This document shows, in pieces, positions 25,228-50,620 of a DNA stretch of 50,753 bases. The translations under genes and the position numbers were made by a program. Below the pieces are notes generated by a model that saw only the letters and a program-made list of their open reading frames with translations, was not told the DNA's origin and made no database searches. The stretch is from positions 1-50,753 of the forward strand of contig CAZQEY010000010.1 of assembly GCA_964592485.1 (NCBI GenBank), given 5' to 3'. Source of the stretch: an uncultured Planctomycetales bacterium (lineage in GTDB: Bacteria; Omnitrophota; Gorgyraeia; Gygaellales; JAHJCI01). The stretch's first letter is position 1; each line of letters opens with the position of its first letter.

Positions 25228-26346
25228 TTAACAAATACGAGGCAAGGGTTCAGAGGTCAACATATCAAGGATGCGGTCTGTACCCAATGTGGTTTTAAGC
25301 AACACCATACCCCGAGGCTTAGAGACTATCCTGCCTATAATTCGGGCAAATCTTCCGAGCTTCTGCCGCTTAAGATATTTTAAGACACTGTCCGCCGAAT
25401 CAGATTTAACTACCAGAACTGCCTTTCCTTCATTAGCAATGTATAAAGGGTCAATCCCCAATAATTCACTCGCTGCCTTTATCCGACTGGCAATGGGAAT
25501 CTTTGCCTCGTGGACAACAATGCCCAAATTAGCGGCCCGGGCAATTTCATTCAAGGTTGTCGCCAATCCTCCGCGGGTAGGGTCGCGCATAAATTTTATC
25601 CCGCACCTTCTTGCCTTACTGCTATTTTTCCCTCGAGAAGGTGCGGGATTTATTGCCTCATCTTTTAATAAGGGAATCAACAGCTTATCCAGGCTAGCGC
25701 AATCGCTCTTAATATTTAGACCAAAATCCATTCCCTTGCGCTGGGTTAATATGCTTAATCCGTGTTCAGCAATCCTTCCTGTGATGATAATCTTGTCGCC
25801 GACTTCGATATTTTTTATTTTAAAATCCCTGATAACCCTGCCTATACCTGTAGTATTGATAAACAACTTATCGCAGGCTCCCCTCTCTACCACCTTTATA
25901 TCGCCGGTAATAACCTTAACCTGAGAACTCTTAGAGGCAGAAGAGATGGCATTAACCACGCGCTCTAATAATGAATAATCCAGCCCCTCCTCAATAATTA
26001 AGGCCAGGGACAGATAAAGGGGCAAGGCGCCAGAAACTACCAGATCATTTATCGTGCCAGAAACAGCAAGTTTACCAATATCCCCACCGAGGAAAAATAG
26101 GGGATGGACTACAAAGGAATCGGTAGTAAATGCTATTGCCTTATCCCAAACCTTTGGATATCTATAGAGGACTCCGCCACGTGGAAGGGTGAGAGAATTA
26201 TCTTTAAAGTCAATAACTGCGCTATCAGTTAATTTATTTAGCAGCGAATTACTGAATTTGGGCAGGATTAGATCTCTGATTAAATTATGCGTTAACTGAC
26301 CACCGCTTCCATGAGCTAATAGAATCTTCGAATTTTGTTTTATCAT
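25228..26346 (-). CDS. hypE: Hydrogenase maturation protein HypE (carbamoyl dehydratase), with a 17-codon in-frame insertion
   Basis: N-terminal LAHGSGGQL and C-terminal LPRIC. 372 aa versus ~336 aa. The insertion SAPSRGKNSSKARRCG sits where E. coli HypE has no counterpart. Confidence 0.9.
   Translation of the reverse strand: MIKQNSKILLAHGSGGQLTHNLIRDLILPKFSNSLLNKLTDSAVIDFKDNSLTLPRGGVLYRYPKVWDKAIAFTTDSFVVHPLFFLGGDIGKLAVSGTINDLVVSGALPLYLSLALIIEEGLDYSLLERVVNAISSASKSSQVKVITGDIKVVERGACDKLFINTTGIGRVIRDFKIKNIEVGDKIIITGRIAEHGLSILTQRKGMDFGLNIKSDCASLDKLLIPLLKDEAINPAPSRGKNSSKARRCGIKFMRDPTRGGLATTLNEIARAANLGIVVHEAKIPIASRIKAASELLGIDPLYIANEGKAVLVVKSDSADSVLKYLKRQKLGRFARIIGRIVSKPRGMVLLKTTLGTDRILDMLTSEPLPRIC
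25599..25649. repeat. 51 bp palindromic element (ATCCCGCACCTTCT...AGAAGGTGCGGGAT) inserted in-frame within hypE
   Basis: 14 bp perfect arms with a 23 nt loop. Length is divisible by 3. Same core as the elements at 32420, 35554 and 49829. Confidence 0.8.
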
Positions 26347-32381: not shown

Positions 32382-32522
32382 TTCAATTCGCCCGCCAAAG
32401 TTCTGTGGCGGGCGAATTGAACCCCGCACCTTTTTCCTACGAAGCAACTCTGCACAGTAGAAAGGTGCGGGGTTAATTCCGACTTACAACTTATGTCCTT
32501 TGAATAAACTCAGGACATAAGT
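32382..32522 (-). promoter_or_regulatory. Three consecutive strong hairpins in the hypC leader: a 15 bp TTCAATTCGCCCGCC hairpin, a 14 bp AACCCCGCACCTTT hairpin and an 11 bp ACTTATGTCCT hairpin
   Basis: Perfect inverted repeats at 32382-32421, 32420-32474 and 32489-32522. Confidence 0.7.
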
Positions 32523-32603
32523 TGTGTCGTCATTAAAATTCTATCATATCTGTCTTAAATTATCCAGAAAAGATTGCTTTTGCTTTGCTTGGCTTGAATC
32601 TGG

Positions 32604-33794
32604 TTAATGGGTCCAAGAGGCAACCGCTGCCTGCCCTAGACTGATGCTTATATCCGAGCAAGGCAGCATCTTATGAGTTAAAATATGAAATCCCGCTTTT
32701 TCTAATAAACCCAAACTTAACTTAAGTAGAATCTTATTCTGGAATACTCCGCCGGTTAAAATAACAGTATTAATCCGGGTGCCGCCTCTTATTCTCAGGC
32801 AGGTCTTTCTAATCATATCGGCAACAGTCAGATGAAAACAAGCAGCAATCTCTTCCTTACTGCAGTCATTTTTCAAATCAGCAATAATCTCCCTAAGGGT
32901 CAAAACCGGATCGATGACAAAAACCTGCCCAATCTTTTTAATCGCAAACTGATAACTTCTCGGCTGAGATTTATAACCAGAAGCGAGCCTTTCTAAATTT
33001 ATCGCTGCCTCAGCCTCGAATCCAACCCGGTAAATCTCTAAGACCAGGCAAGCAATAGCATCAAAGAGCCGACCAATGCTTGAGGCGGGAGGTGAATTAA
33101 AATTCTGCCTCCACATCTTTTCTAGGATAATCCAATTTTTTTTATTTATCCGTTTGAGAAAATCCAAATCTAAATCTAAAAAATTATTTCCAAAAGCCAG
33201 ACAAAGCCAAGCCGAAGCTACTCTCCAAGGTTCATAAATCGCTTTCTTGCCTCCTAAGAGAGGGATATATCTTAAGTGGGCTGCCCGTTTGAAATCCCGA
33301 TAATCAGCAACTAAGAATTCTGCGCCCCAGAGTGTTGAATCACTTCCAAAACCAGTGCCATCAAAGGCAACACCAATAACCCTTTGATTGCTAAGTTTAT
33401 TCTCAAGCATACAAGAAGCAATGTGGGCATGGTGATGTTGAACAGGAATAAGTCTTGGCCCATCAGAAATTTTTGCTCTGCATTTTGCTAAAGCACTATT
33501 TCTAGCGGAATTTATATTTTTTACTTTTTGCAAGTCGAGGATATATTTCGTCGAGAAATATCCCGGATGTTTGTCATAGGCAATAATCCTGGGTGACAGA
33601 CCAAAGCGTTGGGGAATTAAACTTATTCTCCTTTGAAATTTTTTAAAATTATCCGGTATCTCTAAATCGTTGATTACTTCGTTGATAAAAGCAGATCTAC
33701 GGTAAGCAAAGCAAAGGCTATTCTTTATATCTGCTCCCACTGCCAGTATTGGCTTCTTAATTTTAAAGGGTAAATCTATTTCTGACCAAGACAC
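32604..33794 (-). CDS. hypF: HypF-like carbamoyltransferase, Kae1/YgjD-like C-terminal domain only. No acylphosphatase, Zn-finger or YrdC domains in this ORF.
   Basis: PILAVGADIKNSLCF and QHHHAHIASC match HypF C-domain motifs. GTG start. 396 aa versus ~750 aa for full HypF. Confidence 0.65.
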   Translation of the reverse strand: MSWSEIDLPFKIKKPILAVGADIKNSLCFAYRRSAFINEVINDLEIPDNFKKFQRRISLIPQRFGLSPRIIAYDKHPGYFSTKYILDLQKVKNINSARNSALAKCRAKISDGPRLIPVQHHHAHIASCMLENKLSNQRVIGVAFDGTGFGSDSTLWGAEFLVADYRDFKRAAHLRYIPLLGGKKAIYEPWRVASAWLCLAFGNNFLDLDLDFLKRINKKNWIILEKMWRQNFNSPPASSIGRLFDAIACLVLEIYRVGFEAEAAINLERLASGYKSQPRSYQFAIKKIGQVFVIDPVLTLREIIADLKNDCSKEEIAACFHLTVADMIRKTCLRIRGGTRINTVILTGGVFQNKILLKLSLGLLEKAGFHILTHKMLPCSDISISLGQAAVASWTH

Positions 33795-34690
33795 TTGTCT
33801 TCTCCTATTTCTAAATTTAATATATTGTCAATCCTAAAGGTTCTTTCCTGCCTTCTCAAATTACAAAACCCTACGAGGTAAACCCCTTTAGAGACATCAT
33901 ACTCTTTTTCTGTTGCCCTATAGTCTCTAATGGCGCCCCCTTTCTGAATTATTGCCTTAGGTATAACCTCCCGTTCGGTAAGCTTGGCGCCAGCTCCGGA
34001 GAGATACCTTATCTTAAGACTTACTCCTAAATCCAAAGCTCGTTGAATTTGGGCAATCTTAGCGCTATTTATATTATCTAACAATTGTGAGTTTAAACCA
34101 AAAAGGCTAACAAATTGCTCAAAATCAACGACTCCTTTCCCAATAAGGGTGGAATTCAGACGATTAAAAACCTCCGCAGCTAACTGGGCGTCAGAAAGCG
34201 CACGATGCTTCTGGAGACTGTCTATGCCGAGTGTCTTGGCTACAAATCCGAGCGAATAGCTCCCTAAACCGGGCAACATCCTCTTTGCCATAATCAAAAT
34301 ATCCACTATCTGTAATCGCTCAGGAAGCCGGCAGTTGATTAAGTTTGACTCTGAAGATAAAAAGGCAAAATCAAATGGGGCGTTATAAGCAGCGAGGCAG
34401 GATTCAGAGATAAAATCCAAGAATGAAGGCATTACCTCGGAAATATCAGGAGCATCTTTAAGCATCTCCGGAGTAATCTGATTGACTACGAACGCAGCGG
34501 GAGAAATTCTTCTTTCTCCCGGATTTACCAGAGACTGAAATACCTCTAATCTCTGCTTATGCTTGTGCTTGTGCTTGTGCCTTAATCTAACTGCAGCAAT
34601 CTCAACAATACGGTCACCCGATTCTGGAGTAAGACCAGTGGTTTCCAAATCAAAGACACTGAATTCTATCTCGTTGATATTTTTAAGCAT
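33776..34690 (-). CDS. DnaQ-like DEDDh 3'-5' exonuclease fused to a C-terminal WYL-like domain; contains an (HK)4 repeat
   Basis: Exo I FDLETTGL and Exo III H...D. C-terminal YLVGFCNLRRQERTFRIDNI is WYL-like. Start taken at MLKNINEI. Confidence 0.65.
   Translation of the reverse strand: MLKNINEIEFSVFDLETTGLTPESGDRIVEIAAVRLRHKHKHKHKQRLEVFQSLVNPGERRISPAAFVVNQITPEMLKDAPDISEVMPSFLDFISESCLAAYNAPFDFAFLSSESNLINCRLPERLQIVDILIMAKRMLPGLGSYSLGFVAKTLGIDSLQKHRALSDAQLAAEVFNRLNSTLIGKGVVDFEQFVSLFGLNSQLLDNINSAKIAQIQRALDLGVSLKIRYLSGAGAKLTEREVIPKAIIQKGGAIRDYRATEKEYDVSKGVYLVGFCNLRRQERTFRIDNILNLEIGEDKCLGQK
34555..34578. repeat. Hexanucleotide microsatellite (GCTTGT)4 encoding HKHKHKHK inside the exonuclease-WYL gene
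   Basis: gcttatgcttgtgcttgtgcttgt. Confidence 0.8.
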
Positions 34691-34808
34691 AGGCACAATT
34701 TTGTCTCTTAATAATATAATCCAGATAATTACATGTAGAATTGGGAGAAATTTACCCCATTAGAAAGAAAGCATAATTCCAGAGATAGATGCAACTTTCT
34801 AACGGCGT

Positions 34809-35537
34809 TTACCTTCCTACAGAAAGGCGAGCTGCCAAAAATGAAGGCAAGCCACAAGCCAAAATCTTTTCCTGAGCAGATTTGATATCATAGCCTACCC
34901 TCTTAATCAATACCTCTTTTCTTTCAATATCGTAGATACAGAAGCTGGCCTTATTGTCGCCGTCCCGGGGCTGACCGACACTGCCTACATTAACAATATA
35001 TCGGTAGCCTTCTTGGAGTTTGAATCTTGTCTCTCTTTGAAAATCAATTCTTCCATCCTTATCTTGGATAAAAACGCCGCCTACGTGGGTGTGCCCAACA
35101 AAACAGATTGATTTATTCATCAATCTAAAAGTTTGTGCGGCTTCAGAAATATCGGTTATATAATGAAACTCCTGTGGTGAATTTAAACTACCGTGCACCA
35201 AGGTGAAATCCTCATTTTCATAAATAAACCTCAATGATGCCAAAAAATTATGATTGGTCAAATCCATTTTCCTCTGCGTCCAGATAACCGCCTGTTTTGC
35301 CCAATCATTGAAATACTCTAAAGAAAATAAACCAGCCACTGCCCAATCGTGATTTCCTGCGATAATCATCTGGGCAATATCCTTGACTATCTGGATACAC
35401 TCAACAGGGTTAGCCCCATAGCCGACTAAATCCCCAAGGCACAAATACATATCAATCTTTTCGGATTCATATGCCTTGATTACTGCCTCCAATGCCTCTA
35501 AATTGGAATGTATATCCGAGAAAATCCCGTAACGCAT
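34809..35537 (-). CDS. Calcineurin-like metallophosphoesterase
   Basis: GIFSDIHSN, LCLGDLVGYG, GNHD. Confidence 0.8.
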   Translation of the reverse strand: MRYGIFSDIHSNLEALEAVIKAYESEKIDMYLCLGDLVGYGANPVECIQIVKDIAQMIIAGNHDWAVAGLFSLEYFNDWAKQAVIWTQRKMDLTNHNFLASLRFIYENEDFTLVHGSLNSPQEFHYITDISEAAQTFRLMNKSICFVGHTHVGGVFIQDKDGRIDFQRETRFKLQEGYRYIVNVGSVGQPRDGDNKASFCIYDIERKEVLIKRVGYDIKSAQEKILACGLPSFLAARLSVGR

Positions 35538-35553
35538 AAGACAACAGACAATT

Positions 35554-35632
35554 CGCCCCGCACCTTTTCTTTATTCTTCTGGTTTTTATTTACAAATTTA
35601 ACTATATTTGAACATCAAGAAGGTGCGGGGCG
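35554..35632. repeat. Palindromic element copy (CGCCCCGCACCTT...AAGGTGCGGGGCG, ~53 nt loop) between acyP and the phosphoesterase gene
   Basis: 13 bp arms with compensatory flanking CG. Starts 2 nt after the acyP stop. Confidence 0.75.
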
Positions 35633-35633
35633 A

Positions 35634-35906
35634 TTAAAATCTTATTCCAAAATCTCTAAATTCTCCAGTTGGCTCCTGCCATTGAATATCTGCAGCCTGA
35701 ATGTAACTGCGAAAATATTGCTCAATGCGAGAAAGAAAATCCTTTAATACCGACTCCTCTGCCTCGGCAACCAACTCAACTTGACCACCGCGCAGGTTCC
35801 TTACCCAACCAGTAACTCTTGAATCCCGGGCCAAATCTTCAGTAGTAAAGCGAAAACCAACTCCCTGAACCCTACCTGAATAAAATACATGAATGCGTCT
35901 TAACAT
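35634..35906 (-). CDS. acyP: Acylphosphatase (stand-alone)
   Basis: GRVQGVGFR and GWVRNLRGGQVE signatures; 90 aa. Confidence 0.85.
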   Translation of the reverse strand: MLRRIHVFYSGRVQGVGFRFTTEDLARDSRVTGWVRNLRGGQVELVAEAEESVLKDFLSRIEQYFRSYIQAADIQWQEPTGEFRDFGIRF

Positions 35907-42674: not shown

Positions 42675-42790
42675 GAAAACTTTGTAACCACAGATAAACA
42701 CAGGTAAACACTGTTAAATTTTCATAATAAAAATACGAAAGTCTTTTTCTTTCTTCTGTGTTCATCTGTGGTTTATGCTTTCTTATGCTT
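42675..42790. mobile_element. MITE-like element copy 1 with terminal inverted repeats (AACCACAGATAAACAC...GTGTTCATCTGTGGTT), between xseA and xseB
   Basis: Ends are conserved with copy 2 (46289-46405); the internal sequence differs. An extra partial end CCTCTGTGGTT lies at 42827-42842. Confidence 0.7.
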
Positions 42791-44478: not shown

Positions 44479-46390
44479 CTTGCCCTGCTCCTTTCTTCTG
44501 GCCTTCATTAGGTTTTTCCCCTATCGGCTCTTCAGGCTTAATCGGGGTTACTTGCTCCGCCTCTTCAACCTCCACAGAGACTTCTGGTTTTTTATCCATC
44601 ACAATCAAGACCACTGAATACGGCTCCAAAATTAAGGTCTCCTTATAGGTAGTAACATCCTTAATCTCTTTTTCTTCTCGCGGCATAAATGCGCAATCCA
44701 ATCGGCAGGATTTATCTACGATATATTTTTTATAGATATAATCATCCTTAAGATTGGTCAAATTTAAATTTATATTCTGAGACTGGGTAATCAAGGATTT
44801 CGCCATTTTATTTAAAGTAATTGCCTCTTCAATCTTTGCCTTTATCCTTTTGTCTAAGCGCAAGGTTTTTAGAGGAATCTCTGAATTTTTAATCCTCTCC
44901 CATTTATCGGAATGTATTAAATTTACCAATATTCTTGCCAATCTGGGGTGCAATTCAGCCAGATGTCGAGAAAGATAATCCCTGGCAAGCCTGGGGTCAA
45001 TATATTTGAACAAAAATAAGGCGAGGCCTGTTTCTGTCTTGGTGGCAATTATGCCGACAAATTCATCATCCAGGCGCGAGGCAATAAACATCTCGCTACC
45101 CAGCATATTGAGCATACTAATTACATTAAACATCGATTTTGCTCCGCCGGTGTATTTGACATGCTCCGACTCAAACCAGAATAAGCCGACATTTCGATTT
45201 ACCCCTTGTTTATTATTTTTAAAATCCTCCAGGCAAAAGAATATTTGATAATCAATGCCTGACTTTAGCATATTCCTTATCCGGCTGGGGATAAAGCTGG
45301 CAGCGACATAAGACTCCCAGCCTCGCTTGGGTTCAAAGTTTAACCCCGTATCGTAGTTCCATTCACTAATAATTAGAGGTATAGTTGAGTCTAGGCCAAA
45401 ATACGAAAGCCATTCGCGAATAAGTTTTGGAACTATATTTTTATAACAGGTAATTTCACTTTCGGCCAATGGGTCGCTGGTATAGGCATGCCAGCTAATA
45501 AAGTCCAGAGGAAGTCCCTGTTGAGAACAGAAGCGAATAAATTCGTAGATAAGGCTTTCTTCGGGATAGAAAACGGTATTGCCTTCCAAATTCTGGAACC
45601 ACCATGTTACTGCCGGGCCGCCGATGCGAATGTCACGGTTAGTCTCTTTTTCTAATTCCTTTACGCTCTGGGCTACTGCTTGATAAATATTGAGATATTC
45701 TTTTTTCTGCCCTAAAAAGAAATCGTCCGAATCCGGAGCGTTCCATATCTCGTACCAGATATCATAACCCTTCTCGCAACTCAAATAGCGGATAATATGC
45801 TTAACCAGCTCCTTGAACGCGCCGATATCCCAGGGGGAACTTTTCTTATCCAAGACCTTACCTAAGCCCGGAGGCATACCATACAAATTCAAAAGAATGA
45901 TTCCTCCAGCCGAATTTATATTTTTAATCACTGTCGAATAGTTTTCCAGAAATTCGGCCTGCATCTCTTTATCCTTAGCCAGTTGGATAAACTCCCAAAG
46001 GTCAAACTGTAAATGAAAAATACCTCCGCTCAAATCAAGACGTTCGTTGAGTTGGGCTAATACTTCGGGCGCAGCCAAGTTCTGCGGCCAGGTCGGCTGA
46101 TAATGAAACCCCCGGCCGCTTAAATCTATGCCTGGCTTTCTAAGAAGATTCGGCGTTGGTTTTGTCTTACCGGTTATATCCAAGTTGAAATCGATATCGT
46201 TACCTTGAGCGAAAGTAAAATCGCCTATAAAATTCAAAATGCAAAATGCAAATATAAGAATAAAAAAACAAAATCCAGATATTTTTAAAAAATCTTTGCA
46301 ACCACAGATAAACACGGGTAAACACTGCTTAGCATAGAGAATGCTATAAATACCGACCGCTTTTCTCCTCTTGTGTTTATCTGTGTTCAT
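44465..46390 (-). CDS. Secreted TIM-barrel glycoside-hydrolase-like protein with an acidic low-complexity C-terminal tail. The N-terminal ~35 codons, including the ATG, are supplied by MITE-like copy 2.
   Basis: IWYEIWNAPD resembles the GH5/GH39 NEP motif region. Signal peptide ILIFAFCILNFIGDFTFAQ. Start uncertain. Confidence 0.55.
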   Translation of the reverse strand: MNTDKHKRRKAVGIYSILYAKQCLPVFICGCKDFLKISGFCFFILIFAFCILNFIGDFTFAQGNDIDFNLDITGKTKPTPNLLRKPGIDLSGRGFHYQPTWPQNLAAPEVLAQLNERLDLSGGIFHLQFDLWEFIQLAKDKEMQAEFLENYSTVIKNINSAGGIILLNLYGMPPGLGKVLDKKSSPWDIGAFKELVKHIIRYLSCEKGYDIWYEIWNAPDSDDFFLGQKKEYLNIYQAVAQSVKELEKETNRDIRIGGPAVTWWFQNLEGNTVFYPEESLIYEFIRFCSQQGLPLDFISWHAYTSDPLAESEITCYKNIVPKLIREWLSYFGLDSTIPLIISEWNYDTGLNFEPKRGWESYVAASFIPSRIRNMLKSGIDYQIFFCLEDFKNNKQGVNRNVGLFWFESEHVKYTGGAKSMFNVISMLNMLGSEMFIASRLDDEFVGIIATKTETGLALFLFKYIDPRLARDYLSRHLAELHPRLARILVNLIHSDKWERIKNSEIPLKTLRLDKRIKAKIEEAITLNKMAKSLITQSQNINLNLTNLKDDYIYKKYIVDKSCRLDCAFMPREEKEIKDVTTYKETLILEPYSVVLIVMDKKPEVSVEVEEAEQVTPIKPEEPIGEKPNEGQKKGAGQDEAE

Positions 46391-46405
46391 CTGTGGTTTA
46401 TGCTT
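46289..46405. mobile_element. MITE-like element copy 2 (same termini as copy 1), overlapping the 5' end of the GH-like ORF
   Basis: AACCACAGATAAACACGGGTAAACACTG...GTGTTTATCTGTGTTCATCTGTGGTTTATGC. Confidence 0.7.
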
Positions 46406-47331: not shown

Positions 47332-48885
47332 TTATTTTGCGTATTCAATCGCTCTAATTTCGCGAATTACAGTAACTTTAATTTGTCCAGGATATTCTAA
47401 GCCTTCTTCAATCTTCTTTTTTATATCTCGTGCCAGATTCACTGCTTCGTTATCGGAGATCCTTTGTGGTTCGACAATAACACGGATTTCGCGGCCGGCT
47501 TGAATCGCATAGGTCTTCTCCACTCCTTTAAAAGGGTTAGCAATCGCTTCTAATTTTTCCAATCTTTTTATATACGCCTCTAAGGTTTCTTTTCTTGCTC
47601 CTGGCCGAGCTGCACTTATTGCATCGGCAGCAACTGCCAGAATCGCATAAACTGTTAAGGGAGTTTGTTCCTCGTGATGTGACTCAATGGCATGAATAAC
47701 CTCAGCGGACTCTCCGTATTTCTTTGCCAAGCTCGCTCCGATACGGGCGTGGGTCCCTTCCTGTTGCTGATCAACTGCTTTGCCGATATCATGCAATAGC
47801 CCGATGCGCCGGGCTAAACGCCAATCAGCACCTAATTCCGAAGCCATCATCCCTAAAAAATAGGCTACTTCTATGGAGTGCTGGAGTGCATTCTGGCCAA
47901 AACTGGTACGGAAATTCAGCCGACCCAGGAGCCTGATCAATTCCGGACGTAATCCTTCAACGCCCAATTCGAAACAGGCAGCTTCGCCCTTTTGTTGAAT
48001 CTGCTCCTCCAAATCCTTGCGTGTCTTTGTTACCACCTCTTCTATGCGGGCGGGATGGATACGGCCGTCGCTAATCAGTTTTTCTAAGGATATACGCGCC
48101 ACCTCTCGTCTTATCGGATCAAAACTAGAGAGGATAACGCTTTCGGGAGTATCGTCAATAATCACATCAACACCGGTAACCATCTCCAAGGCGCGGATGT
48201 TCCTGCCCTCACGACCTATAACTCTACCCTTCATCTCATCATTAGGCAGATTAACCACGCTAACCGTTGTCTCCGCAGCATATTCTGCCGCATACCTTTG
48301 AATAGCCAAACTTATAATATCAGTAGCCATCTTATTAGACTGAGCGCGCAGTTCTTCTTCCTGTTTTCTAATCAAATTAGCCTTCTCCGCATTAAGTTCA
48401 TCGCTTATTCGCGCCAGAAGAATCTTTTTTGCCTCATCAGGAGACAAAGAGGATATTTTCTGAAGGCGTTCCTTCTCTTCAGCAATAAGATTAAAGAGTT
48501 GATTCTCTTTGACTTTTAGACTTTCCTCTTGACGACTAAAAGCTGTTGCCTTTGATTCAAGGTCCTTTTCCTTTTTCTCCAGTAATTCCAGACGTCGGTC
48601 AAGATTTATCTCTCTCTGGGCGAATTTCTTCTCTAACTCAGTCAATTCCTGACCGCGCTGCTTTGTCTCATTCTCAAAATCCTGGCGCAGGCGAAACATC
48701 AAATCCTTCGCCTCCAGCTCTATTTCTCGACGCCGGTCTTGAATCTCCTTATCTGCCTTCTCCAAAATAAACTGTGCTTTAGCTTCAGCGTCCTGAATCT
48801 TTCTCTCGGCAAGGTATCTTCTTAATAAGTAACCTCCGCTTAAGCCGACAGCCGCCGTAATAATCAATAGGATTGTAGTCAACAT
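47332..48885 (-). CDS. rny: Ribonuclease Y (N-terminal TM, coiled coil, KH, HD)
   Basis: [17 protein letters not shown]; HD LLHDIGK. Start placed at MLTTILLII with an AGGAGG SD; the ORF-track start is a TTG. Confidence 0.9.
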
Positions 48886-49057
48886 TTTATCAAAACCTCC
48901 TTTCCTTATTATAAACTGAGATTGAATTTTAAGCAAGCCCCGTTAGGAATTTTTATTTGACGTATTAGCAAGCAGTATTTCTAACGGGAGTCTAGTTATA
49001 ACTTTTTATTAACCTTTGGAATTCAGTTGAAACAATAAAGAGGAGATCTTTGTCCAA

Positions 49058-49285
49058 GCTTTAGCCTCAGCTAAAGTCAGGTATTGTTTCGGGCTGAACT
49101 TCGATTGAGACTAAACTTTGATCAAAGGCTTTGCTCAAACTCCAGCCTCAGCTAAAGCGCTGCTTTAAGCTTAAACTTCAGTCAAGACTAAACTTTGATC
49201 AAAGGCTTTGCTCAAACTTTAACCTCAGCTAAAGTAAAATATTGTTTTAGGCTGAACTTTGGTTGAGGCTAAACTTTGATCAAAG
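49058..49285. repeat. About 3 tandem copies of a 68-83 bp unit, each containing palindromes CTTTAGCCTCAGCTAAAG and CTTTGATCAAAG, in the long rny leader
   Basis: CTTTGATCAAAG at 49116, 49193 and 49274. CCTCAGCTAAAG occurs three times. Confidence 0.8.
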
Positions 49286-49287
49286 AA

Positions 49288-49854
49288 TTAAGCGGAGAGG
49301 ACTTTATCTACTGGCATATCAATTTGCTCGACGGGTAAGTGCGGCAAGATTTGGAAGTCAAAGGCCAAACCAATGGAATGCGTACGTTGGGGTAACCCTT
49401 TTAGGAAGCGGTCATAATACCCTTTACCTCGCCCCAGGCGATTCCCTTTCTTATCAAACGCAAGGGCGGGCACAATCACCAAATCCAATTCATCAACAGA
49501 CAAATCAATCTTAGTTTGGGGTTCCAATGTTTGGTATGGCCCTTTATCTAATTTGCTATCTTCCATCAAAATACATGGCTTCAAGGCCTTCTGTTTAGTA
49601 TCGCATACAGGAACAAAAATCTCTTTACTAAGGCCCCTTGCCTTATTAATCATGCTTTCTGTGTTTACCTCTCCGTCAAAAGCTAGATAAAACATTATCC
49701 TCTCTGCTTTAATAAATTCCTCCTGTTTTAAAAGTTTCTCTTCAATCAGCTTGCTTTTTTGCTTACGCTCCTGCTCCGTTTGTTGTTTTAATCTATTTAT
49801 CAATATATTACGTAATTGCCTCTTTGTCAACCCCGCACCTTTTTGAAAATTCAT
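49288..49854 (-). CDS. 5-formyltetrahydrofolate cyclo-ligase
   Basis: GRGKGYYDR motif; 188 aa. Confidence 0.85.
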   Translation of the reverse strand: MNFQKGAGLTKRQLRNILINRLKQQTEQERKQKSKLIEEKLLKQEEFIKAERIMFYLAFDGEVNTESMINKARGLSKEIFVPVCDTKQKALKPCILMEDSKLDKGPYQTLEPQTKIDLSVDELDLVIVPALAFDKKGNRLGRGKGYYDRFLKGLPQRTHSIGLAFDFQILPHLPVEQIDMPVDKVLSA

Positions 49855-49952
49855 TTTTTAATTATTGTCTTGAACCCGCCCTCTTAAAAGGTACGGAATG
49901 AATATTACCCAAAATCCACCAATAATATTTTAATACGTAAAAGGTGCGGGGT
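49829..49952. repeat. Palindromic element copy (AACCCCGCACCTTTT...AAAAGGTGCGGGGT, ~95 nt loop) spanning the 5-FCL start codon
   Basis: Left arm lies within codons 5-9 (KGAGL). Right arm is 15 nt after the upstream gene stop. Confidence 0.75.
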
Positions 49953-49966
49953 CAAGTTTTCGCTCA

Positions 49967-50620
49967 TTACTTTACTAAAATCTTGCTACGCGGCCGGGTA
50001 GTCTTCTTAAAATCTCTCGGTGCTTTTATCTTCTTAAACTCAGCGAGCTGTTTTTGCTTTTCCAGTTCCTGATAAATCAAAACCCAGGCACAGTCCTTAT
50101 CCTTATCCACCTCACATTTGCCCTTATCCATTCCGCCGCAGGGACCATTCAGCAGCCCTTTGGCGCAGAGGGTAAGGGGGCAGATACCGGCAGTTACTCC
50201 TAAAACACACTCCCCACAGGCAGAGCATTTCTCGTATAGATTTCCCTTGGCATCAACAACTCCTAAAAACTCCGTATTGCAAGCCGGTAAAACCACCAAC
50301 CCTAAGCGGTCATTTGCCTTGACTGATTGTACCCCCAGTCCACAGGCAAGAATCAAAATCGCCTGGCTTTCTCTTAATGCCTTCATATTCTTGGCTAATT
50401 CTGTCTTTACCTGAGCAGCAATACAGGGCGCCTGAGGAATAGTAAAGCCGGTAACTACCTTACCATTTTCCTCTAAGGCCTTTTTCATCGTGGCGACCTC
50501 GGCCTCTCCTCCGGTCTTACAAACTGTAGCGCACTCCCCACAGCCAACCAGAAAGACCTTATCGTATCCTTTTAAGCTATCAATTATCTCCTGAATCGGT
50601 TTTTGCTCTGTAATAATCAT
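49967..50620 (-). CDS. MetV-like Cys-rich Fe-S protein (methylene-THF reductase C-terminal-like domain)
   Basis: Multiple Cys clusters (GCGECA, CSACGEC, NGPCGG). AAGGAGA SD. Confidence 0.6.
   Translation of the reverse strand: MIITEQKPIQEIIDSLKGYDKVFLVGCGECATVCKTGGEAEVATMKKALEENGKVVTGFTIPQAPCIAAQVKTELAKNMKALRESQAILILACGLGVQSVKANDRLGLVVLPACNTEFLGVVDAKGNLYEKCSACGECVLGVTAGICPLTLCAKGLLNGPCGGMDKGKCEVDKDKDCAWVLIYQELEKQKQLAEFKKIKAPRDFKKTTRPRSKILVK

Follow-up and report, generated by a model that had tools for sequence, protein, structure and literature searches.

Several kinds of short repeated palindrome are known from bacterial genomes. Repetitive extragenic palindromic (REP) sequences and REPINs lie outside genes and carry no target duplication; HUH single-strand transposition makes no target-site duplications; the Correia elements of Neisseria take TA as their target. 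The Rickettsia palindromic elements (RPEs) are short multicopy repeats of ~150 bp, conserved over their full length and confined to Rickettsia, which often lie in frame within unrelated coding genes and add a peptide without killing the gene (PMC10969869). Bacterial MITEs (transposable elements of the miniature inverted-repeat kind), represented by Correia/NEMIS, ERIC, RUP, Nezha and MITEAba12, share a set of general properties (PMC10969869, PMC3184786), and gene overlaps of the ATGA and TAATG types have been reviewed together with the translational coupling that they allow (PMC12548453, PMC6728339). Coupling through the unmasking of a hairpin is typified by the MS2 coat-replicase pair and by ermC-type leaders. 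Here we compare with these systems a palindromic element of 121 bp, copy D, which lies at the start of the 5-formyltetrahydrofolate cyclo-ligase (5-FCL) gene in a 50,753-nt stretch of DNA (the window; contig CAZQEY010000010.1 of assembly GCA_964592485.1) from an uncultured Planctomycetales bacterium placed by GTDB in the Omnitrophota.

Copy D is very probably a MITE-like palindrome, transposable but non-autonomous, that ends in 13-nt inverted repeats (YCCCGCACCTTYT) and inserted into 5-FCL, and it belongs to a new family of a known kind, both MITE-like and RPE-like. Like the RPEs, the family inserts in frame, within HypE, radical-SAM, HIT, metallophosphoesterase and YrdC-LMW phosphatase (LMWPc) genes. 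In contrast to the RPEs, its members share only their 13-nt ends, with variable interiors, TNNA duplications and other hosts, and hosts, size and conservation all set it apart from RPEs as described (PMC10969869). With the bacterial MITEs it has in common a small non-coding body, terminal inverted repeats, target-site duplications, insertion polymorphism, hairpins in mRNA and a capacity to supply or disturb the expression signals of neighbouring genes. It differs from them in its ends, in its target (TNNA with a 4-bp duplication, against TA for Correia), in the lack of a parent insertion sequence in the sampled loci and in an unusually strong link to RTGA starts and stop/start junctions, where a start codon is formed anew from the right end and the duplication. 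REP/REPIN sequences and their RAYT transposases offer a parallel in abundant short palindromes near genes, whereas the copy D family has duplications and intragenic in-frame copies. The likeness to hairpin-unmasking coupling lies in a leader open reading frame (ORF; 49967-49905) that reads one strand of the stem, in a putative ribosome-binding site on the 3' arm and in an ancestral TAATG junction, a classical coupling overlap; the arrangement at copy D is, in contrast, no evolved leader but an accident of transposition.

The palindromic element at the 5-FCL gene start

The genes around copy D all lie on the minus strand, and the features of the locus are as follows (SD, Shine-Dalgarno).

49831..49951, minus strand: copy D, palindromic repeat element, 121 nt, CCCCGCACCTTTT...AAAAGGTGCGGGG read on either strand
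49939..49951, minus strand: 5' terminal inverted repeat as read along the gene (CCCCGCACCTTTT), which today supplies codons 6-10 of the residual leader ORF
49831..49843, minus strand: 3' terminal inverted repeat as read along the gene (AAAAGGTGCGGGG), with SD-like AAGGTG 5 nt 5' of TTG 49830
49952..49955, minus strand: upstream half of the 4-nt target-site duplication, reading TTGA along the gene and TCAA along the plus strand
49827..49830, minus strand: downstream copy of the target-site duplication, TTGA, containing TTG 49830-49828
49905..49967, minus strand: remnant of the ancestral 5-FCL start, where ATG 49967-49965 opens a 20-codon ORF (MSENLTPHLLRIKILLVDFG-stop)
49288..49854, minus strand: 5-FCL, 188 aa from ATG 49854 or 180 aa from TTG 49830
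49967..50620, minus strand: MetV-like gene (DUF5981, methylene-tetrahydrofolate reductase C-terminal domain), stop TAA 49969-49967
49871..49902, minus strand: probable nested mini-copy within copy D, a 24-nt degenerate arm-arm hairpin TTCCGTACCTTTTAAGAGGGCGGG (49898-49875) between two TTCA

The original prediction placed a palindromic element at the start of 5-FCL, and a repeat search recovered it as two arms, 49830-49843 (ACCCCGCACCTTTT) and 49939-49952 (AAAAGGTGCGGGGT), each of 14 nt, 100% complementary and separated by 95 nt; the arm sequences that recur elsewhere are CCCCGCACCTTYT and ARAAGGTGCGGGG. The outermost A-T pair of the 14 is part of the flanking target duplication, which leaves 49831-49951 as the element proper. 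The long ORF of 5-FCL begins MNFQKGAGLTK and its codons 5-9, AAA GGT GCG GGG TTG, are indeed the downstream arm, the 3' arm thus coding for K-G-A-G when ATG 49854 serves as start. The Pfam domain begins at residue 11 of this long form, and public gene calls (NCBI, Logan) start the protein at TTG 49830-49828 (180 aa, MTKRQLR). The other arm lies 3' of the MetV-like stop and on the gene strand starts 14 nt past it. When the 176-nt leader is folded as RNA the predicted stem forms and grows to 17 pairs through G-U pairs of the flanking TTGA, with a minimum free energy of -46 kcal/mol (z = -4.0) that none of 200 shuffled sequences equalled. With up to 2 mismatches allowed, the window contains the 14-mer arm 9 times, where 0.30 would be expected, and in facing pairs throughout; this excess together with the fold statistics excludes a chance origin of the inverted repeat. 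The same 121 nt are found, identical, in a second assembly, a Logan contig of SRR14802574 (L001).

The evidence for insertion comes from relatives. The N-termini of 120 homologues of 5-FCL were compared, and the DNA of relatives was fetched and aligned for a comparison of filled and empty sites. The homologues nearest to the window protein begin MSENLTK, MSKYLTK or MSKTLTK and have no KGAG, hence this segment is element-derived in the window; other, more distant homologues begin ...KGAGLTK and several of these also have the upstream arm at the same site. The condition set for refuting the prediction, orthologues with the same N-terminus and no upstream arm, turned out in favour of insertion: the nearest have neither KGAG nor arm and several more distant ones have both. 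The closest orthologue, L197 (GCA_964588765.1, 85% identical protein), reads unbroken through ATGAGCGAAAAC-TTGA-CAAAG (MSENLTK), and the window has the same sequence split after TTGA by a clean insertion with a 4-nt duplication:

Empty site, L197: GTCAAGTAATGAGCGAAAAC TTGA CAAAGAAG (longer right flank CAAAGAAGCAATTACG)
Filled site, window: GTAAAGTAATGAGCGAAAAC TTGA (121 nt, CCCCGCACCTTTT...AAAAGGTGCGGGG) TTGA CAAAGAGG (longer right flank CAAAGAGGCAATTACG)

Because of this alignment, the ancestral 5-FCL can be read as beginning ATG AGC GAA AAC TTG ACA AAG (MSENLTK). The MSEN remnant left in the window matches the N-termini of P0002 and P0004. In relatives the MetV-like stop overlaps the 5-FCL start, and the closest orthologues keep this overlapping junction intact and have no hairpin. 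The comparison indicates an ancestral 5-FCL of 184 aa whose ATG overlapped the MetV stop as TAATG, into which copy D inserted after the TTGA spanning codons 5/6, duplicating TTGA and contributing KGAG. The proposal that an inserted element had its arm co-opted as coding sequence is thus borne out. The annotation of 5-FCL is settled accordingly, with a transposon-derived KGAG, MSENLTK as the native N-terminus and the 20-codon leader as a fossil of the old start. In other lineages with a filled site the ORF is intact, as in the window.

The distribution of filled sites is intricate. The window, L198 and L200 are filled, while L117 and L119 are empty like L197. In L198 (76%) and L200 (69%) the element occupies the same TTGA and its interior is homologous to that of copy D, the last 30 nt being 93% and the first 25 nt 88% identical. 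When the interior of copy D was compared by BLAST with 1.2 Mb of loci, matches were found solely at the orthologous-site copies L198, L199 and L200, and for this reason an old shared insertion and repeated hits by one subfamily are inseparable on the interior sequence. In a protein neighbour-joining tree filled and empty sites are interleaved, and the upstream remnants, intact in the window (MSEN) and in L198 (MSKN), each match the nearest empty relatives; together these observations call for either repeated insertion at a hot TTGA or precise excision between the 4-nt repeats. A hot spot is supported by remnants (ATGAATAAAGAAAAGGGTGTGCGG-TTGAC, for instance) that orthologues of only 52-56% identity have at this position, and by two other palindromic families, the CCCCGTTACAAAT...ATTTGTAACGGGG family and the TTGACCCTTCGA... 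element, which hold the same TTGA in further lineages. The hexamer TTGACA at the 5-FCL start is invariant in 79 of 80 orthologous loci (L117-L196), synonymous positions included.

Several further observations concern this site. At distant 5-FCL orthologues the CCCCGTTACAAAT...ATTTGTAACGGGG family is present in L158, L175, L189, L169 and L127 (~60-90 nt before the 5-FCL match) and the TTGACCCTTCGAYTTCGCTCAGGGTCAATGGTGAGCGYAGTCGAACCA family in L154, L184, L131, L167 and L168; both other palindromic families are flanked by TTGA(C), and the former has CCCCG...CGGGG tips in common with the copy D family and is present also in loci of the candidate phyla radiation (CPR). In the window (49802-49830) and its close relatives TATATT stands 17 nt 3' of TTGACA, a match of 11/12 to the sigma-70 consensus. 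This match and the invariance of TTGACA may reflect only the TTG start codon plus codon bias. A promoter at copy D was considered, with TTGACC-17-TAAAAT across the upstream duplication and the element (10/12) and TTGACA-17-TATATT at the gene start (11/12), but 2 hits against 1.1 expected are no evidence for one.

Copy D itself may be composite. Compared with the homologous L198 copy of 93 nt it has 28 extra nt, TTCA plus TTCCGTACCTTTTAAGAGGGCGGG, beside a second TTCA, which the L198 element is without. In this single comparison the extra segment is probably a nested mini-copy that consists of arms alone and is flanked by a separate TNNA duplication.

Copies in the window and in other phyla

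Three further hairpins with the same arms are found in the window.

25599..25648, minus strand: copy A, 50 nt, which with its TAAA duplication makes 54 nt, 18 in-frame codons in HypE (INPAPSRGKNSSKARRCG)
32422..32472, minus strand: copy B, 51 nt, in the HypF-HypC spacer upstream of HypC, with flanks TGAA and TTAA matching at 3/4 positions
35556..35630, minus strand: copy C, 75 nt, separating an acylphosphatase ORF from a metallophosphoesterase ORF, with no flanking duplication visible

The four copies have only their ends in common. Their loops of 24-95 nt are unrelated in sequence, and the outer stem position varies by paired changes (A..T, G..C, T..A). Copy A, flanked by TAAA on both sides within an AIR-synthase-type ORF identified as HypE, corresponds to a 17-residue gap in the Desulfovibrio HypE 2z1t directly before the conserved MRDPTRGG. 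The site is filled in P0121, P0122 and P0127 and empty in P0123, P0125, P0129 and others, and P0124, P0126 and P0128 display a shortened arm-only form (INPAP..AHRGGI). A second insertion in HypE, DNSLTLPRGGVLYRYPKVW at ~26140-26205 (residues ~48-68), may likewise be a small inserted element; solved HypE structures and many orthologues do not have it, and close relatives differ in both its length and its sequence.

The distribution of the family was scanned with CCCGCACCTT-N25-55-AAGGTGCGGG in one genome per GTDB species, phyla being assigned by record title. Paired arms were recovered in at least 115 GTDB stretches, against a rough estimate of a few tens of chance matches for the whole collection. 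All counts of copies from here on are among the matches listed, which divide into 43 Omnitrophota, 29 Patescibacteria/CPR, 19 Planctomycetota, 10 unclassified and 14 others. For the analysis of flanks the element was defined as the 10-nt core arms plus one outer pair, with control flanks displaced by 6 nt. Identical 4-nt flanks were present in 50 of 120 copies and in 0 of the displaced controls. The duplicated sequence was TNNA in 44 of the 50, with TGAA/TTCA (26), TTTA/TAAA (13) and TCAA/TTGA (5) making up the spectrum from which a TNNA target follows, along with a few others. TNNA duplications are about equally frequent in Omnitrophota (20/50), Patescibacteria (15/31) and Planctomycetota (9/20) and are present in 0/14 of the 'other' hits (actinomycetes, Prevotella etc.), which behave like chance matches in this test.

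Watson-Crick pairing extends over the outer pair, the core and two inner pairs and then breaks down, which sets the inverted repeat at 13 nt (YCCCGCACCTTYT). Wobble pairs number 6 on the sense and 7 on the antisense strand; since there is no bias to the transcribed strand, a terminal repeat at the DNA level fits better than a selected RNA helix. Copies measure 50-121 nt in the window and have medians of 65-73 nt elsewhere, and no copy contains a long ORF. The interiors, of 20 to about 100 nt, are often unrelated and only the 13-nt ends are common to all copies, although a 73-nt subfamily of Omnitrophota and Planctomycetota has a conserved interior (...TATTCAA...GGTTT...TGAATAAGAAAG). Small size, lack of a transposase gene, terminal inverted repeats, target-site duplication and filled/empty orthologous sites are those of a MITE, and for copy D in particular the sequences show inverted repeats with a duplication, a closest relative whose site is empty, further copies elsewhere in the window, and a family in three phyla that has the same TNNA duplications and includes copies in frame inside genes.

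A full-text literature search found no description of the copy D family. An Rfam scan of the whole window at gathering thresholds returned two tRNAs only, and a permissive scan (E up to 10) of 49780-50000 gave sub-threshold plant miRNA and hairpin noise, with a best score of 22.7 bits against a cut-off of 80. The family thus appears to be an undescribed group of very small palindromic transposons common to Omnitrophota, Patescibacteria (CPR) and Planctomycetota, phyla whose mobile elements are barely charted. That the 13-nt ends are identical in three phyla suggests that these hosts have in common a transposase that moves horizontally; IS1380-like and IS5/IS701-like elements, which make 4-5-bp duplications, are no more than a lead to it. 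It adds peptide segments to enzymes (HypE, radical-SAM, HIT proteins), splits or remodels gene starts, and will mislead gene callers and RNA-motif hunters.

Several observations weigh against a transposable element. A perfect 4-nt duplication is present in only about 42% of copies, copy B having an imperfect one and copy C none, and it is unusual for a MITE that a 13-nt end should be conserved exactly across three phyla. A search of about 1.2 Mb of sampled loci for arms spaced 200-4000 nt apart uncovered neither a transposase nor an autonomous element with such ends, and the ORFs inspected in L078 and L107 are ordinary genes (YicC-like, Ndk-like, ParB-like, response regulator); mobility is consequently deduced from its footprints alone. 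The filled state at 5-FCL is also patchy, L198 and L200 being filled while closer relatives are empty, which requires repeated hits on one TTGA or precise excision. Finally, the argument from the SD-like motif is weak, a recognisable SD being present in only about 16 of the 43 window genes.

Gene starts, rival explanations and translation of 5-FCL

The copies are strongly associated with gene junctions. In 43 of 130 copies, often at ATGA gene junctions, the last base of the element and the duplicated TG make up, at the exact offset, the ATG or GTG start of an ORF of 60 codons or more. For 18 of these the opposite duplicated start opens an upstream ORF (uORF) through the whole element (MNPAPS...EGAG-stop), ending in a TGA that overlaps the new start as RTGA. 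Between 13 and 15 copies lie exactly on a stop/start junction, and 45 of 118 (~38%) have no relation to a gene boundary. About 12 copies (~10%) lie inside long open frames, where element plus duplication is a multiple of 3. Four hosts of such in-frame copies were checked against Pfam, a radical-SAM enzyme, a HIT protein, a metallophosphoesterase and the YrdC-LMW phosphatase, and in the last of these the phosphatase domain (LMWPc) matches in two stretches flanking the insert.

The reach over three phyla with identical ends and the strong association with RTGA gene junctions are unusual, and the cause of the association is the most interesting point. Targeting, built-in compensation and survival of harmless insertions may each account for it. 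It is conceivable, but we consider it unlikely, that the family is a cross-phylum mobile element adapted to land on RTGA starts and stop/start junctions and to offset its own damage. On such a reading the right end plus the duplicated TGA(A)/TTGA would rebuild the start codon, and the 3' arm would bring an SD-like AAGGTG at the right spacing. The stop of the uORF MNPAPS...EGAG-stop would overlap the new start and so keep the interrupted gene translationally coupled, and in Omnitrophota the host may have domesticated some copies, among them those at the repeatedly filled 5-FCL site, as coupling modules gated by the hairpin. Should the start-codon association have its basis in targeting or in compensation built into the element, the family would exemplify a natural transposon made harmless at gene junctions.

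A different origin for the same association would be selection by the host, the arms being a binding or processing site (anti-SD, RNase III, a dsRNA- or DNA-binding protein) recruited at gene starts. The identity of the 13-nt arms across three phyla, the AAGGTG in the 3' arm, and the 43 copies that end on an RTG start, 18 with a through-reading uORF, together with the 13-15 on stop/start junctions, all suit such a motif. However, TNNA duplications and empty sites indicate insertion events, about a tenth of the copies lie in coding sequences of unrelated enzymes, the ~38% noted above ignore gene boundaries, wobble pairs lack a sense-strand bias, and the enrichment at gene boundaries is explicable by selection after random insertion. 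A host-selected motif is therefore improbable.

Somewhat less probable still is a dedicated translational-control structure, in which the stem would have evolved to occlude the ribosome-binding site and start of 5-FCL and so gate the synthesis of a folate-salvage enzyme. This possibility was raised in the original prediction and draws on a stable hairpin around ATG 49854 in which the SD-like AAGGUG and the TTG are paired, and on several 5-FCL orthologues with the same arm at the same place. As an account of the nature or origin of the element it is not supported, and for the origin it is largely refuted, because the same arms stand at three unrelated loci of the window, one of them in the HypE coding sequence, and in the at least 115 stretches mainly of three phyla; moreover the closest orthologues have an intact overlapping MetV/5-FCL junction and no such structure, the TTGA duplication flanks copy D, no Rfam family matches and wobble pairs show no strand bias. 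The scatter of one repeat through the genome and three phyla argues for an insertion that the gene survived and not for a purpose-built regulator. For similar reasons a cis-regulatory leader RNA (riboswitch, attenuator or RNA thermometer) was rejected, the nearest orthologues being without the structure, the same stem standing at unrelated genes and Rfam giving no hit at threshold.

Very little speaks for a REP/REPIN-type extragenic palindrome moved by a RAYT (IS200/IS605-like HUH) transposase, a far-fetched explanation suggested by short G+C-rich palindromes in many copies mostly near genes, since the copies have target-site duplications, lie in frame inside genes and have loops of 24-99 nt in place of a tight REP hairpin; no RAYT-like ORF was seen beside any copy, though no systematic RAYT search was made. 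An assembly or chimera artefact giving a spurious palindrome at a contig-internal junction, for which nothing speaks beyond the metagenome-assembled source, has a negligible probability given the identical sequence in the Logan assembly of SRR14802574 and homologous filled sites in JGI, ENA and NCBI contigs from other samples.

Three other candidates were discarded. An integron attC is contradicted by ends of CCCCG...CGGGG without GTTRRRY and by copies at gene starts and inside genes, an invertible promoter by spacers down to 24 nt and by copies that are in-frame coding, and a tRNA minihelix, with the arms and a flanking GTTCA as T-arm, by the fact that its 'T-loop' is the variable target duplication.

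With copy D taken as an inserted transposable element, its consequences for the translation of 5-FCL can be outlined. The insertion would have separated the body of 5-FCL from its native ATG, which, because of its overlap with the MetV stop as TAATG, was probably translationally coupled to MetV. The native ATG would now drive the 20-codon leader ORF, which runs through the 5' arm to a stop in the loop at 49907-49905, and 5-FCL would re-initiate from signals of the element and the duplication. One candidate start is TTG 49830, which belongs to the downstream TTGA and follows the AAGGTG of the 3' arm at a distance of 5 nt. The second is the element-internal ATG 49854, in frame, which would add MNFQKGAG and is preceded by an A/U-rich tract with no SD. 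The two are not separable by SD because an SD-like motif occurs in only about 16 of the 43 window genes.

In the mRNA the paired arms would bury AAGGUG and UUG, and ribosomes that come from MetV and translate the leader ORF across the 5' arm would unwind the stem and free both. Coupling by hairpin unmasking would then be the likeliest way in which 5-FCL stays expressed, a tentative proposal to which we give clearly less than an even chance. It is plausible that the occlusion of the SD-like AAGGUG and TTG by the stem is a side effect that the gene lives with. Because the leader ORF ends 75 nt before the TTG, termination-reinitiation is unlikely. Any translational effect of copy D is a by-product of the insertion.

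Neighbouring genes and other repeats

Downstream of 5-FCL lies one further annotated gene of the minus strand.

47332..48936, minus strand: RNase Y (ORF and Pfam annotation)

The spacer between the 5-FCL stop and RNase Y (49047-49286) contains direct repeats of 77-80 nt, 85-89% identical, around CTTTGATCAAAG palindromes.

The HypF-HypC spacer (32382-32525) displays three consecutive hairpins with copy B in the middle. The first is a G+C-rich stem with 19-nt arms (TTCAATTCGCCCGCCAAAG/CTGTGGCGGGCGAATTGAA, 32382-32421) and the third a perfect 14-nt stem (ACAACTTATGTCCT/AGGACATAAGTTGT, 32486-32525). HypF itself is apparently split or reduced across 32604-35906, with an acylphosphatase ORF (35634..35906) and a Kae1-like HypF C-terminal ORF (32604..33794) separated by the metallophosphoesterase ORF and an RNase T/WYL ORF, and no zinc-finger or YrdC part was seen there.

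Among the sampled loci, a Prevotella metagenome-assembled genome (L033, 923-2578) contains a 1.66-kb segment bounded by perfect 16-nt inverted repeats (GCCCGCACCTTGGGCA), with a 67-nt hairpin of the same arms at its left end. This segment looks like an invertible region of Bacteroidota and probably has no relation to the copy D family.

A second, unrelated palindromic family is represented by two copies in the window, at 46300-46398 and 42686-42773, both adjoining gene ends, with arms AACCACAGATAAACAC...GTGTT(T/C)ATCTGTGGTT and ~50-57 nt between them.

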